Assembly: GCA_031272275.1 (NCBI GenBank)
Contig: JAISUC010000011.1
Span: 2,290-66,289, forward strand
Reading direction: 5' to 3'
Source: Actinomycetes bacterium
GTDB taxonomy: Bacteria > Actinomycetota > Coriobacteriia > WRKU01 > WQUG01
Length of the DNA: 64,000 nucleotides
The position numbers were made by a program, and so were the translations under genes. Shown here one piece after another: positions 7,216-62,879 of this stretch. Below the pieces are notes generated by a model. The model was not told the DNA's origin. It saw only the letters and a program-made list of their open reading frames with translations, and searched no databases. Position 1 is the first letter of the stretch; each line of letters starts with the position of its first letter.

Positions 7216-9816
7216 TTATGCGTCCTTGCCACGAACGGGTTGCAGCATCAGCCAAACCAACGCAGCACCCATATACAGCACCATCAGCGCCGGTAGCACA
7301 ATCCCGCTGTCCTCGGTGAAATACGACACCACACCCCCGGTCAGCGTGCCTGCGATACCATAGCCGAAGTACGGATTCTGTGCGATCACGCGGGCGAAGT
7401 CGCCGGTCGGACGCGCGCGCATATAGATGAGAAACGCGATCACCGCCGCAAACACCCAGGTCAGGCTGGACTGCGTAAACACCCGCAAGTTGATTCCGGC
7501 CTTGCGCACGACGATCTGCCAGAGCTCTATCAGGCCGCCCGATGTGGCGGAATCGAGCGAGCGCGCCAAATGCGTCTGGGCACCCGTGCCGTACCGGTCC
7601 AGCAAAATCAAGGCGAACACAACCACGCAGACCGCCACAAACATCGCCGCAATCGTCCAGAAGTTTATTTTCCAGCGGTTCACCAGCAACCACAGCACCG
7701 CAAAACCCACAGTCGCCCAGGCAGCAACGCCCACGTTGGCACCCAGCCCCGGGGCCGCCGACACGAATACCGTCCCCAGACCGATGATCGGAACCCCCCA
7801 CAGGCGCAGATGTCGCGTCCATGCCGCATCCGGCCACTGGTCGATCATCAGCATCATGCAGACGATCACCGCCCCGAACAGCACCGCAGCACCTTCGTTG
7901 CCGATACCGTAAAACCGAAACGCCGCAATGGGGCTGTAGCCGAAAAAGCTGGTAAACGACGCCGGTGCGCCCAGCAACTGGTCAATCACGATGGTCAGCG
8001 TCGTCACCCCGGACAGCAGTATCACGGGGAGTCGGATCGCTCTGGTGTGTGCCGTCCGCGCGTCTGCCGCACCCGGGAAGCGGCGGCGCAAGCGCCACAG
8101 CAACAGCGCGGCGGCCCAGAGCACCACCTGTACTATCAAAAACTGGATGTTTGCCTGTGTCGGGGTGGCGGGCCAGCGATAAATCAGAAACATCAGCCAG
8201 CTGGCGGCAGGGATACAGAGTATTCCCAGAATCAACACATAGAGCACCGCCTTGATACCGCGCGTGGTAAACGCCGACCAGCGTTTATCGGCAAAGGTGA
8301 TGACAACCGCGCCTGCAGCGAGTACCACCACGGCCGTCCACACACAGACGTTGATTACCACCGGGCGCAGGACCTCGACACTGATGGCGGTATTGTTCAT
8401 TTTTTCCAGAAGGTCGATGCGGGATGCCGCCGCCTGGTCGCCGTAGCTGTCGCCTGCACCGTAACCGGTACCCTGCAGATAGTTGCCGATGTCTGACGGG
8501 TCGGGTTCGGTGTAGACCTGGGCTCCCAGTACCTGCACCGGAACGGTGACTTCCATGCTGGTCAGAATGGTCGCGGTCAGATCGACATTCGTGACCAAGC
8601 CGCGCCGATGGGTCGAATCCGACGACACCAAACCGACCGGGGTCTGCACATCCGACCGGTCTGCGGTGTCGTCGCCGGTCGCGGCGGGCGTGGTGATAAA
8701 CAGCGGACCGAAGCCCTCGCGATTGAGCGTCCACGAGCGGCTGGCTTGGCTCGCGACAATAATGGTCGCGTCGTCGAAGATCTCGCAGGCGCGGCCATAG
8801 ATGGTGTCGAGTGTGTCCAGCGATTCATGCCAGGTGCGCAGCGCCACGTCGGCTGCGACCTCGGTCGCGCTGGTGCGGGCACGGTAGCCATCGCCCGGGT
8901 CGAGCACCACCAAAGCCGGCGTGGTGTTGTCGTCGGGCAGCTGTTCTGCCACCTGTTTCATGGCTTTGTTAAAGGCATCGCGGTCGGTGCGCACGCCGAA
9001 GGGACTGGTCGTGTCTTTTTCCAGAATGTCTTCGGTGATCTGTCCGTAGCGCACAAAGCCCTGTTCGTTCATCGCGGCGATGGCGGCAGGGCGCAACAGC
9101 CGCTGCGCCTCGGTCGAATAACCCAGATCGCTGTTGCCGATGGCGGCGGTCACGCCGCCGGCGTCCTCGATGGCAGAGCCCAGCGTGCCGGGGACGACCT
9201 TGAACGAGTTCGTGGCGTTGACCTGAATGGTGCGCGGTAGCCCCAGGTAGGCGATTTCGTAGCCGTCCATGTCGCCTGACAGAACACGGCGGTAGGATTC
9301 CTCGACCGGGTTGGTGCCGAAGCGCTCGCCGCGCTGCAGTGCGGGGTAGGCCGATTCGTTGGTGATCGGCCAGGCGCCCGCGCTGATGGCGAGTGCGCCC
9401 TCGGCAAGCGAGGGGCGACCGTCGTCTTCTTTGACGCGGCTGCGCGCGTTCACGTCGCCGATGGCACCGGTGGCTGCGGCCTGCCAGAGGTTCGGGGTGT
9501 CGGTTGCGGTGATGTCTTCCCAGCGCAGGAACGGTGCGAGTATCAGAACCACTTTGTGGGTTTCTTTGGCGGCGTCGCTGATCAGCTGTTCGTGCGCGGT
9601 GTCGACGGCAGGGTCGAGGGTGGCGGCGGACGTGCAGGTGGGATGTGACAGCGCGGTAACAAGCGGCAGCACGAGGGCGGCGGACAGGACGAGTGCGGAC
9701 ATGCGACGAGTGCGGCGCGTGGCGGTCTGCCGGCGGGTGCGGGACGTACTCCCCCCCTGCGTTTCGGGTGTTTCGGGTGTTTCGGGTGTTTCGGTTCGTG
9801 TTGTTGCGAAGGTCAT
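7216..9816 (-). CDS. Large membrane protein with extracellular alkaline-phosphatase-superfamily-like domain and multi-TM C-terminus
   Basis: Signal-like segment, KVVLILAPFLRWEDI, GLVTNVDLTATIL, RFYGIGNEG, TEDSG; start uncertain. Confidence 0.7.
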   Translation of the reverse strand: MTFATTRTETPETPETPETQGGSTSRTRRQTATRRTRRMSALVLSAALVLPLVTALSHPTCTSAATLDPAVDTAHEQLISDAAKETHKVVLILAPFLRWEDITATDTPNLWQAAATGAIGDVNARSRVKEDDGRPSLAEGALAISAGAWPITNESAYPALQRGERFGTNPVEESYRRVLSGDMDGYEIAYLGLPRTIQVNATNSFKVVPGTLGSAIEDAGGVTAAIGNSDLGYSTEAQRLLRPAAIAAMNEQGFVRYGQITEDILEKDTTSPFGVRTDRDAFNKAMKQVAEQLPDDNTTPALVVLDPGDGYRARTSATEVAADVALRTWHESLDTLDTIYGRACEIFDDATIIVASQASRSWTLNREGFGPLFITTPAATGDDTADRSDVQTPVGLVSSDSTHRRGLVTNVDLTATILTSMEVTVPVQVLGAQVYTEPDPSDIGNYLQGTGYGAGDSYGDQAAASRIDLLEKMNNTAISVEVLRPVVINVCVWTAVVVLAAGAVVITFADKRWSAFTTRGIKAVLYVLILGILCIPAASWLMFLIYRWPATPTQANIQFLIVQVVLWAAALLLWRLRRRFPGAADARTAHTRAIRLPVILLSGVTTLTIVIDQLLGAPASFTSFFGYSPIAAFRFYGIGNEGAAVLFGAVIVCMMLMIDQWPDAAWTRHLRLWGVPIIGLGTVFVSAAPGLGANVGVAAWATVGFAVLWLLVNRWKINFWTIAAMFVAVCVVVFALILLDRYGTGAQTHLARSLDSATSGGLIELWQIVVRKAGINLRVFTQSSLTWVFAAVIAFLIYMRARPTGDFARVIAQNPYFGYGIAGTLTGGVVSYFTEDSGIVLPALMVLYMGAALVWLMLQPVRGKDA

Positions 9817-9869
9817 CGGTTGGGGCTCCTGGGGTTCGGTCGCGGGCGGTCGTTCGGTAAAGCACCTGA

Positions 9870-9887
9870 TGGTATCATAAGCGCGTG
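9870..9887 (+). promoter_or_regulatory. Extended -10 promoter, probably leaderless
   Basis: TGgTATCAT (9870-9878), 6 nt, then GTG start at 9885; no SD. Confidence 0.5.
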
Positions 9888-61384: not shown

Positions 61385-61461
61385 TGGTCGGGCAGATAGG
61401 ATTTGAACCTACGACCCCTTGACCCCCAGTCAAGTGCGCTACCAAACTGCGCCACTGCCCG
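61385..61461 (-). tRNA. tRNA-Pro (GGG)
   Basis: CGGGCAGTGGCGCAGTTTGGTAGCGCACTTGACTGGGGGTCAAGGGGTCGTAGGTTCAAATCCTATCTGCCCGACCA. Confidence 0.98.
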
Positions 61462-61571
61462 ACCTAAGACAGCTTAGAAATAATACCACAAGTACCAACG
61501 GGATTGACACGCCGATTGCGCCGATTGTGCGCGAGCCGCGGCGAACTACAGCCCCAACCGATCAGCCGCCA

Positions 61572-62879
61572 TCAAGACGCACCCACGACCGTTTCCAGGA
61601 TACTGCGCGCGATCAGTGCCTTCGAAGCCCGGGGGAGCATGATGTCGGCACCGTCGCGGCCCAGCAGGCGTACCTCGTTATCCGCGGCATCAAACCCGAT
61701 GTCTGTCCGCGACACGTCGTTTGCGACGATCCAGTCCGCGCCTTTGGTCGCAAGCTTTTCGCGCACGTGCGTGTCGAGGTCGTCAGTCTCGGCGGCAAAA
61801 CCCACCAGCACCGCACCCGCACGCAAGCGCCCCGCCGCTTTCATCTGTCCCAGTTCCGCCAGAATGTCGGGATTGCGGACCAGCTGAACGGTCACAACCT
61901 CTTCGGTGCCGCCGACACCGTCGTCAGCTACCGTGGTGGACAGCGCATATTTCTTGATTTTCGACAGGCTATGGGTGCGCGGACGATAATCGGCAACCGC
62001 CGCCGCACACAGTATCACATCGGCATCTGCCGCCGCATCCAACACGGCGCCGCGCATTTCGGCGGTTGTGGTGACCGGTACCATTTCCAGACGCGCGTCA
62101 TGCCGGCTGACCGGGCGCGCCAAGTTGACCGGACCGGACACCAGCACCACACGCGCAGCCCCGGCGCGCAGCGCCTGCTGTGCCAGCGCATATCCCATCC
62201 GGCCCGAGCTACGGTTGGTCAAATACCGCACCGGGTCAAAGGGCTCACGGGTGGGGCCTGCGCTCACCAGTACGGTGCGGCCGCTGAGAAACGCACGGTC
62301 CGGGACGTACTCCCCCACCGCGTCGGCAATCGCCGACGGCTCGGACATGCGGCCGATGTCGCTGGTGCCGCACGCCAGCTCGCCCGCAACGGGGCCCACC
62401 AGCACCACGCCGCGGTCGCGCAGCGTCTGCAGGTTTTCCTGCGTGGCCGCGTCCAGATACATCTGCGTGTTCATGGCCGGTGCCACCACCAGCGTGCCCT
62501 GGTAGGTCAGCGCGGTCGTCGTCAGCAGGTCGTCGGCCGTGCCGTGCGCCAGTTTTGCAATCACGTTTGCCGTGGCGGGCGCGATGACCATGATGTCGGC
62601 CGCGTCAGCCAGCGAGATGTGGTGAATCGGGGCGCCGGCGGCGTCATACAGGTCGACGGCGACGGGGTTTCCGGTCAGGCTGCGAAAGGTCGCGGGTCCC
62701 ACCAGCTCGGTCGCGTGCGGAGTCATGACGACCTGCACACGCATGCCGGCTTTGGTCAACAGGCGGACCAGCTCGCAGCTTTTGTAGGCGGCGATGCCGG
62801 CGGACACGCCCAGGACGACCGTGGGCGTGGCGGGTGCGGGCGCGCCGGCGGAGTCGGTATGTATAGGAGTCTCGTCCAT
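61572..62879 (-). CDS. coaBC: Bifunctional phosphopantothenoylcysteine decarboxylase/synthetase
   Basis: GIAAYK, APATANVIAK, APAMNTQM, GPTREPFDPVRYLTNRSSGRMG, AAVADY, VGFAAET, IVANDV. Confidence 0.97.
   Translation of the reverse strand: MDETPIHTDSAGAPAPATPTVVLGVSAGIAAYKSCELVRLLTKAGMRVQVVMTPHATELVGPATFRSLTGNPVAVDLYDAAGAPIHHISLADAADIMVIAPATANVIAKLAHGTADDLLTTTALTYQGTLVVAPAMNTQMYLDAATQENLQTLRDRGVVLVGPVAGELACGTSDIGRMSEPSAIADAVGEYVPDRAFLSGRTVLVSAGPTREPFDPVRYLTNRSSGRMGYALAQQALRAGAARVVLVSGPVNLARPVSRHDARLEMVPVTTTAEMRGAVLDAAADADVILCAAAVADYRPRTHSLSKIKKYALSTTVADDGVGGTEEVVTVQLVRNPDILAELGQMKAAGRLRAGAVLVGFAAETDDLDTHVREKLATKGADWIVANDVSRTDIGFDAADNEVRLLGRDGADIMLPRASKALIARSILETVVGAS

Follow-up and report, generated by a model that had tools for sequence, protein, structure and literature searches.

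Introduction

What keeps one 15-nucleotide word intact at scattered places in a bacterial chromosome, and what reads it? The question is raised by a 64,000-nucleotide stretch of DNA (the window; contig C8, positions 2290-66289) of genome G000, which carries seven exact copies of the word GGGACGYACTCCCCC. G000 is an uncultured metagenome-assembled genome (MAG) of 27 contigs, 1.77 Mb and about 60% GC, with a completeness of 93.7%. The sole listed sequencing run that contains the stretch is termite-gut metagenome DNA, and the protein cluster nearest to the CoaBC of G000 is chiefly from Actinomycetota. We know of no cultured representative of the motif-bearing group. A first-pass annotation of the window had taken the word for a species-specific uptake signal, with a site for a dimeric nucleoid protein and an origin from a mobile repeat as other options.

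The word is over-represented across the genome, constrained as DNA and not as peptide, formed in place by substitution, symmetric between the strands, spelled in dialects by related genera and restricted to one family, in a genome that carries genes for DNA uptake. Our main new result is that GGGACGYACTCCCCC is, judged by sequence comparison, one dialect of a family-wide signal. We regard it as very probably a real and ancient DNA signal, with dialects, that is read by a protein. By analogy with the DNA uptake sequence (DUS) of Neisseriaceae and the uptake signal sequence (USS) of Pasteurellaceae, the word may be a self-recognition tag for natural transformation whose reader is the uptake machinery, a reading to which we assign a probability of about 0.45. 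Transformation in Gram-positive bacteria is taught as sequence-blind, and a third unrelated family of signals with dialects would matter.

Genomes and methods

Genes in G000 were called with a crude custom caller (codon log-likelihood), giving 1122 genes and 81% coverage. Replichores were taken from local GC skew on contigs and not from a closed genome. Copies in the window were judged against 100 dinucleotide shuffles, genic copies against 100 rounds in which synonymous codons were shuffled inside each gene, and mismatch counts against the reversed motif pattern. Clean spacers are those of 20-400 nt with both flanking genes scoring at least 40. The family comprises ten genomes (G000-G009) and the class-wide scan 121, including 111 from 18 other families. 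The assemblies compared are MAGs of 59-94% completeness; among the relatives G004 was compared as a whole assembly (1.54 Mb, 47% GC), and G007, G001 and G003 were available for word comparison as samples of 400, 309 and 141 kb, respectively.

Abundance and form of the word

The window holds seven exact copies where 0 are expected, a number that none of the 100 shuffles reaches, and 16 copies with at most two mismatches, against 0.35 expected and three in the highest shuffle. The coordinates that the first-pass annotation gave for all 16 are right (Table 1). Genome-wide there are 248 exact copies on 26 of the 27 contigs (137 of the T variant and 111 of the C variant), 128 of them on the plus strand and 120 on the minus strand, so the balanced orientation noted in the window extends to the genome. 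No other 10-, 12-, 14- or 16-mer of G000 is as abundant as the word and its sub-words; there is one exact copy per 7 kb and one copy of the 10-mer core per 5 kb. A further 125 copies have one mismatch and 81 have two; the corresponding figures for the reversed control are 0 exact, 1 and 9. At three mismatches the matches (141 against 128 in the control) are background.

The one-mismatch variants are concentrated at two sites: 39 have G for A at position 8 and 31 differ at the last C. In G000, C9 and T10 are invariant and GGAC is nearly so. The flanks follow a weak consensus of G, C/G and G/T at -5 to -3, C at -1 (178 of 248 copies, as had been remarked for the window) and a T-rich tract at +17 to +21. 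This consensus is equal in genic and intergenic copies, and the T-rich flank therefore belongs to the DNA word, since genic copies carry it too.

Constraint on the DNA and origin in place

Among the exact copies 113 are genic, 133 intergenic and two lie at gene edges. About 20 of the 113 fall in the first 30 codons of open reading frames (ORFs) that are probably over-extended, and the genic share is at most 46%. The earlier statement that most copies lie in coding sequences thus holds for the window (10 genic, 3 intergenic and 3 ambiguous at ORF ends) and fails for the genome. Genic copies use all six frames, 58 on the gene strand and 55 antisense, which agrees with the view that this is not a protein motif. 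Synonymous-codon shuffles retain a mean of 0.53 genic copies and a maximum of 4, so that the enrichment over a codon-aware null, which had been suggested as a check, is massive. In the called proteome some peptides are largely written with the exact motif: GT[YH]SP in 15 of 20 cases, GGVRP in 9 of 10, GE[YC]V in 29 of 46 and GRTP in 20 of 38. PMC2817400 describes uptake sequences as having doubled the frequencies of their tripeptides.

The VGEYVP residues of CoaBC align without a gap with 12 relatives. A tblastn search of the 113 motif-bearing proteins against G004 matched 78, and in 48 of these a high-scoring segment pair (HSP) extends across the site: 35 sites are gapless, four have a partial gap and nine lie within long variable gaps. 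Some of the gapless sites have well-conserved flanks, as in sstkwPGRTPPgyvmlrgfag (G000) and sstkwPGRAPEgrvlirgfag (G004). The orthologue alignments that had been proposed to separate substitution from indel scars come out on the side of substitution, and insertion of a mobile repeat is ruled out for the genic copies because most of the sites compared align without a gap.

Dialects across the family

Of 40 relatives searched, 39 yielded no exact 15-mer and G007 a single copy, which is taken as chance. With three mismatches allowed, several members of the family hold far more matches than the reversed control gives, and the sister genera have spellings of their own, TGGACGCACTCCGCC, TGGACGTACTCACTC or TGGACAGACTCC, each commonest in its own genome. 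The commonest word of G007 is TGGACGCACTCCGCC, those of G001 are TGGACGYRCTC and TGGACAGACTCC, and that of G003 is ATGGACGTACTCACTC, in the dialect (A)TGGACGTACTCACT(T/C)C; the whole genome of G004 has no comparable commonest word. Across four genera there are four spellings with GGAC..ACTC common to all, and every dialect shares the 5' flank gC.Gg and the T-rich 3' side. The positions that are invariant within G000 (C9, T10 and GGAC) are those shared by all dialects. In the relatives the word is strand-balanced and 55-70% of its copies are genic.

Whole-genome counts of TGGACGYACTC are 339 in G003, 318 in G007, 121 in G001, 66 in G006, 48 in G005, 26 in G009, 10 in G004, two each in G002 and G008, and one in G000; the reversed pattern occurs 0-6 times in the family genomes. 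The string is enriched in six of the nine other family genomes and marginal in G004 (10 against 3). None of the 111 genomes of the 18 other families is enriched, each having at most nine copies, the control level, and the signal is therefore confined to one family. Each of the five genera sampled shows it, and in G002, G008 and G004 it is either faint or lost. Of the proposed species-specific uptake signal, the resemblance to DUS and USS is strengthened by the codon null, the substitutions and the dialects; the restriction to one species falls, the dialects being family-wide.

At the coaBC site each lineage writes its own dialect: cGGGACGTACTCCCCCa in G000, gTGGACGCACTCCGCCa (carrying TGGACGCACTCCGCC) in G007 and cTGGACAGACTCCTCCa (carrying TGGACAGACTCCTCC) in G001. 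The site has decayed in G005, G009 and G004, and none is found in genus g3 or in other families. The dialect word stands unaltered at three of the 24 gapless orthologous genic sites in the G007 sample and at none of 81 control offsets (Fisher p = 0.011); the HSP behind one of these three has an identity of just 25%. The figures for G001, G003 and G004 are 0 of 17, 0 of 8 and 1 of 67. With so few orthologous sites keeping a dialect copy, most sites turn over and a minority are ancient and follow the dialect. Between genes, 12 of the 62 gene ends compared share a motif where the background rate is 14%, and there is no regulon-like conservation of intergenic positions.

Beyond these genomes, a protein scan of metagenome contigs gave no closer relative and a scan for the inverted-pair pattern gave none. 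A motif scan of genome contigs returned, among the matches listed, scattered single matches only, one of them in a Coriobacteriaceae genome that holds a single copy. Among viral contigs there were 29 matches, each the only one on its contig. In the literature, the four 10-mer strings occur just in unrelated primer lists, and our searches turned up neither the word nor any uptake signal reported for Actinobacteria or Coriobacteriia.

The word as an uptake tag

G000 carries comEA-comEC and dprA. Its single T2SSE ATPase lies within a complete tad locus encoding RcpC-like, TadZ-like, TadA, TadB, TadC and TadE-like proteins, two Flp prepilins with the G/xxxxEY motif and proteins of 728 and 142 amino acids (aa). 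The actinobacterium Micrococcus luteus is not known to us to take up DNA sequence-specifically or to carry an over-represented word. Its transformation requires tad genes (PMC4322843). G000 resembles it in gene content, with Flp prepilins in a tad locus, dprA and comEA-comEC but no Com or type IV pilins; the motif-less G004 has this set of genes as well.

If the word is an uptake tag, a surface receptor, possibly a Tad/Flp pilus component or a ComEA partner, would prefer double-stranded DNA with the asymmetric core GGAC-G-Y-R-CTC and would also favour a lineage-specific tail (CCCC in G000) and the T-rich 3' flank. Tagged DNA would be pulled in, passed to ComEA/ComEC as a single strand and delivered to DprA and RecA for recombination. 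Fragments that match better would be taken up more often, so that near-matches would become matches over time (molecular drive), and the word would accumulate in permissive sequence such as spacers, protein linkers and weakly constrained genes. As the preference of the receptor drifted, the genomic copies would follow and dialects would arise. Maintenance would then be by drive and not by site-by-site selection. We suggest, still more tentatively, that this is sequence-specific uptake in a termite-gut actinobacterial family (Coriobacteriia in the first-pass annotation), based on Tad/Flp and ComEA/ComEC and with dialects as barriers to gene flow, which would be the first case outside Proteobacteria and the first in a Gram-positive organism.

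The mapping of density and strand that had been advised shows random spacing (coefficient of variation 1.01 against 0.99 +/- 0.06 simulated; median 4293 against 4360 +/- 309) and strand balance in genes. The quartile of genes with the highest codon adaptation holds 0.36 copies per 10 kb and the other quartiles 0.88-1.02, and 20 copies fall in stretches of less than 56% GC, where 32.7 would be expected (p = 0.012). Permissive placement of uptake sequences is described in PMC2817400 and PMC2397512. The region C19:102889-132180 (loci L210 and L211), 29 kb of about 47-55% GC, is motif-free and corresponds to a cell-wall polysaccharide/teichoic-acid cluster with glycosyltransferases, rhamnose-type sugar-nucleotide enzymes and a CDP-glycerol glycerophosphotransferase. 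Probably this is a polysaccharide island of the cell wall that has been exchanged; a few motif-free gaps of about 29 kb are expected by chance.

The likeness to known tags is considerable in kind. As described in PMC3630211, DUS are, like the word in G000, short and asymmetric, present in hundreds of copies on both strands and the commonest 10- to 12-mer of their genome; they too form lineage dialects around an invariant core (CTG), in one family with apparent losses in some members. Accounts of DUS also share with G000 a majority of copies outside genes and some inverted pairs resembling terminators. The sequences are unrelated, and G000 is a Gram-positive member of the Actinomycetota, in contrast to the betaproteobacterial hosts of DUS. 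USS resemble the word in having a strong core with a weaker flank consensus that includes a T/A-rich tract and, as in PMC2817400, many genic copies in several frames, inflated matching peptides, a preference for poorly conserved genes and residues, and an origin by substitution; they differ in their shorter core (9 bp, against 11-15 bp and GC-rich in G000). The same paper gives genic shares of 34.5% for Neisseria meningitidis and 65% for Haemophilus influenzae, on either side of the share in G000.

Several observations weigh against an uptake tag. DUS and USS have a density of about one per kb and the word in G000 is some five to seven times sparser, at one per 5-7 kb. Solitary copies in spacers between co-directional genes are biased towards the sense strand (46 sense, 12 antisense; p = 8e-6), which pure uptake drive does not predict. 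Close inverted (-,+) pairs within 120 nt number 18, or 36 of 454 copies with at most two mismatches; this 8% contrasts with the half or so of DUS and USS that lie in terminators according to 10.1101/2025.10.24.684340, which also gives genomic uptake tags as known from two proteobacterial families only. Among the genes that had been named for a search, comEA, comEC and Flp prepilins are present, together with dprA and tad, and N_methyl (type IV or Com) pilins were not found in G000. The motif-poor G004 keeps comEC, comEA, a syntenic tad locus and dprA intact, and the motif-less G002 and G008 keep intact comEC and comEA. Because motif-poor relatives have the same genes, the known machinery permits an uptake tag without lending it specific support. 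Finally, comparison of the genes of G000 with those of its relatives yielded no candidate reader protein.

In that comparison 319 proteins of G000 have no match in G004, and 42 of these match the partial samples of G007, G001 or G003. Judged by eye, those that recurred resemble acyl-CoA ligases with XRE-cupin regulators, a RhuM-like protein and a Bro-N/DinD-like protein. The Bro-N protein was rejected, as it is present in the motif-less G002 and G008 and was not found in the motif-bearing G001, G005 and G006; Flp2 was rejected as a discriminating reader, as it is present in all ten family genomes. A search with ComP_DUS (PF16732) gave no match in G000 and none in the control genomes either. 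The ComEA HHH_3 frame is 201-222 aa long in the motif-less G002 and G008, 270-343 aa in the motif-bearing G000, G001, G005 and G007, and 305 aa in the motif-poor G004, a weak lead towards an N-terminal domain.

The contrasts between G007 and G004, and between G006 and G002 or G008, offer a natural experiment for finding the reader. If the word is an uptake tag, self-preference would have evolved independently on a Tad pilus, which would give a new handle on the specificity of DNA receptors, and there would be species barriers to gene exchange within a dense gut community. If it is not, some other reader keeps hundreds of 15-mers perfect and shifts them with its own preference; we know of no description of such a mechanism. 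In either case the dialect words could serve as lineage markers in metagenomes.

Alternative readings

The main rival, in our judgement unlikely but by no means far-fetched, is a genome-wide site for a lineage-specific cytoplasmic DNA-binding protein (a nucleoid-associated protein, insulator, transcription roadblock or global regulator), kept by site-by-site selection and drifting in specificity between genera. It would account for a density of 0.9-1.4 copies per kb in clean spacers against about 0.08 per kb in genes, for the sense bias of the solitary copies, which in clean spacers is 22:10 for exact copies and 35:14 with one-mismatch copies included (p = 0.004), and for the position of intergenic copies, which border promoter-like, AT-rich DNA on its upstream side (TANNNT is two to three times commoner downstream than upstream). 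Any co-evolving reader would yield dialects with a conserved core, and the competence genes do not track the motif. Selecting more than 370 near-perfect copies of a 15-mer one by one is a demanding proposition, however, and a regulatory role is hard to see for the 90-113 or so genic copies, which occupy all frames and both orientations. Intergenic positions are not conserved between genera (the 12 of 62 gene ends above), the copies as a whole are randomly spaced, the distance to -10 and -35 boxes is not fixed, and the sense bias is absent in the three sampled relatives (10:13, 9:10 and 12:8; small numbers, solitary and hairpin copies pooled).

Some candidates for the sense bias and for the intergenic copies were tried and rejected. 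Avoidance of Shine-Dalgarno sequences was dropped because the sense strand of spacers shows no depletion of GGAGG, GGGAG, GGGGAG or GGGGG. A promoter element was dropped for want of a fixed spacing to the boxes, judged partly by eye; the downstream side is simply AT-rich. An element of extracytoplasmic function (ECF) type, GGGAC-N17-CGTA, was dropped because GGGA stands at -18 in just 26 of 248 copies.

A drive other than uptake is improbable. It would consist of sequence-specific nicking, repair or gene conversion (compare very-short-patch repair), or of a word for a conjugative or segregation translocase, and it fits the in-place substitutions, the strand symmetry, the dialects and the lack of a link to competence genes. 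Translocase guide words, the FtsK orienting polar sequences (KOPS) and SpoIIIE recognition sequences (SRS), are 8-mers with a strong strand skew, and the skew expected of them is not seen here. A candidate gene was not found in G000, and we know of no drive system for an asymmetric word of 11-15 bp.

A role at the RNA level, as a motif of the 3' or 5' untranslated region, half of a terminator, an anti-Shine-Dalgarno sequence or a small-RNA target, is very unlikely. The sense bias of the solitary intergenic copies and the T-rich tract 3 nt past the motif would suit it, as would the arrangement of the close pairs: 18 of 20, including the pair behind the Bmp gene, have the G-rich arm first and the T-rich ends outward, with one opposite and one direct. 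The genic copies, by contrast, are divided evenly between sense and antisense and have the T-rich flank as well, the relatives lack the bias, and Rfam finds two tRNAs in the window and no match at any motif copy. A clear complementary arm lies upstream in 24 and downstream in three of 246 exact copies. In minimum-free-energy folds the C-rich tail is paired no more commonly than at random (32 of 135 intergenic copies, 40 of 250 random sites). The terminator reading was rejected on these pairing figures. With so few inverted pairs and complementary arms, about 85-90% of the copies are solitary; hairpin copies in spacers between co-directional genes are 18 sense and 13 antisense.

A polar chromosome signal of the Chi or KOPS kind, or a palindromic organizer site of the matS, Noc or parS type, has hardly any credit left. 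The word is over-represented, has taxon-specific variants and is presumably read by a DNA-handling protein, as Chi, KOPS and SRS are, and it has an overall leading-strand lean of 116:70. This lean is confined to intergenic copies (62:28), where it arises because they follow gene direction (genes 678:198); genic copies, with 32 on the leading and 35 on the lagging strand, show no replication-strand bias, in keeping with the earlier argument against polar sites. Chi, KOPS and SRS are moreover 5-8 bp long and skewed to the leading strand, so that the word, at 11-15 bp, is about twice their length. Sites such as matS, parS and those of Noc (NBS) are palindromic and number tens of copies in one chromosome region, whereas here more than 370 copies are randomly spaced on 26 of the 27 contigs of the draft assembly and the conserved core is asymmetric. 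The proposed dimeric nucleoid-protein site on GGGA-N5-TCCC is weakened for the same reason: the symmetry is lost in the G003 dialect TGGACGTACTCACTC and what stays invariant is the asymmetric GGAC..ACTC.

A repetitive extragenic palindrome (REP) is an imperfect palindrome of 20-40 nt that lies between genes and is spread by a Y1 transposase, the REP-associated tyrosine transposase (RAYT). A mobile short repeat of this kind, or a remnant of a miniature inverted-repeat transposable element (MITE), is largely refuted as the source of the word: the likeness goes as far as short dispersed repeats enriched between genes with some inverted pairs, a few copies that form the arms of a recurring ~77-bp unit (C3:71019, C3:72271, C26:77 and C26:862) and genuine REP-like families elsewhere in G000, but the word is not palindromic, is genic in all frames, arose by substitution at gapless sites, some in well-conserved flanks, has an orthologous coaBC site in three genera and a ratio of exact to degenerate copies (248:125:81) unlike that of a decaying element, and the sole Y1_Tnp match (C14:7693-7827) scores 20.9 bits, under the cut-off of 23. 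The suggested origin from a GTAG-headed REP is rejected as well, since GTAGCGCGGCACTCCGTGC is a separate repeat and the genic motif copies are not insertions.

Motif copies in the window and neighbouring features

Table 1. Copies of the word in the window, and other repeats discussed in the text. Positions are those of the window unless a contig is named.
Feature	Position	Strand	Context
Exact copy, T variant	9741-9755	+	Codons 21-26 of longest minus-strand ORF 7216-9816; ~130 nt upstream of DUF6020 gene (+)
Exact copy, T variant	11264-11278	+	In DUF6020-family gene 9885-11570(+), same strand, AGRTPP, outside Pfam-matched part
One-mismatch copy, last C to A	24633-24647	-	In rimO, 24506-25867(-)
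Two-mismatch copy	30478-30492	+	In 5461-aa adhesin-like ORF 28362-44747(-), antisense
Exact copy, T variant	32266-32280	+	In giant ORF 28362-44747(-), antisense, TGEYVP
Exact copy, T variant	34752-34766	-	In giant ORF 28362-44747(-), same strand, GTYSPD
Two-mismatch copy	43521-43535	+	In giant ORF 28362-44747(-), antisense
One-mismatch copy	47657-47671	-	In subtilase (Peptidase_S8) gene 45768-48305(-)
Exact copy, C variant	48289-48303	+	First 6 codons of longest S8 ORF
Inverted pair, two one-mismatch copies	49690-49704, 49708-49722	-, +	Hairpin GGGGGAGTGCGTCCG-GCG-GGGATGCACTCCCCC, 66 nt after Bmp stop codon
Two-mismatch copy	54850-54864	-	In ABC-2 permease gene 54458-55201(+), antisense
One-mismatch copy	59183-59197	-	In ABC transporter gene 58433-60316(-)
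Exact copy, C variant	60341-60355	-	68-nt spacer, marR (60385-60969)/ABC transporter gene; sense to both, 25 nt before ATG
Exact copy, T variant	62302-62316	+	In coaBC 61572-62999(-), antisense, VGEYVP, Flavoprotein/DFP domain linker
Two-mismatch copy	63066-63080	-	21 nt from stop of weak ORF 63045-63611(-), no Pfam family
Paired units of ~75-95 bp	C3:71019-71096, C3:72271-72348, C26:77-171, C26:862-939, C19:94983-95058, C19:98242-98317
Second repeat, CGTCATTGCGAG	527, 16408, 23691-23801, 44858, 55526
Second repeat, CGGTGGATTGCC	28280

The inverted pair after the Bmp gene forms a hairpin, as had been described; it is followed by GTGTTATTG and is terminator-like. The exact copy at the start of the longest S8 ORF belongs in effect to a divergent spacer: it has the orientation of the Bmp gene and precedes it by 108 nt. 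Directly after the first exact copy, at 9765-9800, stand four tandem copies of GTGTTTCGG, which read as (PET)n on the minus strand at the start of ORF 7216-9816; the true start of this ORF is uncertain because the signal-peptide-like MSALVLSAALVLPLV occurs at residue 39. The 5461-aa ORF, with its two exact and two two-mismatch copies, has a counterpart in size in a second giant ORF of 7850 aa on C21.

In the paired units two inward-facing motif copies enclose a related, GC-rich spacer that measures 45-64 nt. In every case the T variant forms the left arm and the C variant the right, so that one strand would have a G-U pair and the other an A-C mismatch.

Other repeats in the genome

A second repeat family consists of a hairpin unit of about 45-50 nt, CGTCATTGCGAGCCCGCC-loop-GGCGGGCGYGGCAATCCACCGG, of which the left word occurs 130 times and the right word 67 times genome-wide. 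In ORF 23181-24509 the CDP-OH_P_transf and CinA domains are separated by four in-frame copies spaced 33 nt apart, so that the apparent fusion may be two genes bridged by the array. The GTAG-headed REP, GTAGCGCGGCACTCCGTGC(CGCC), is classical-looking and has 25 copies genome-wide, one of them at window positions 48179-48197. The genome also has 29 hairpins in which G/C-rich stems vary around the conserved loop AAAAAGCTGCAAAGCTTTTTAT; the window copies are at 2305 and 2453 on the minus strand. Such hairpins are sometimes in tandem (C1:20544-20692), and a conserved loop on a variable stem is unusual for plain terminators.

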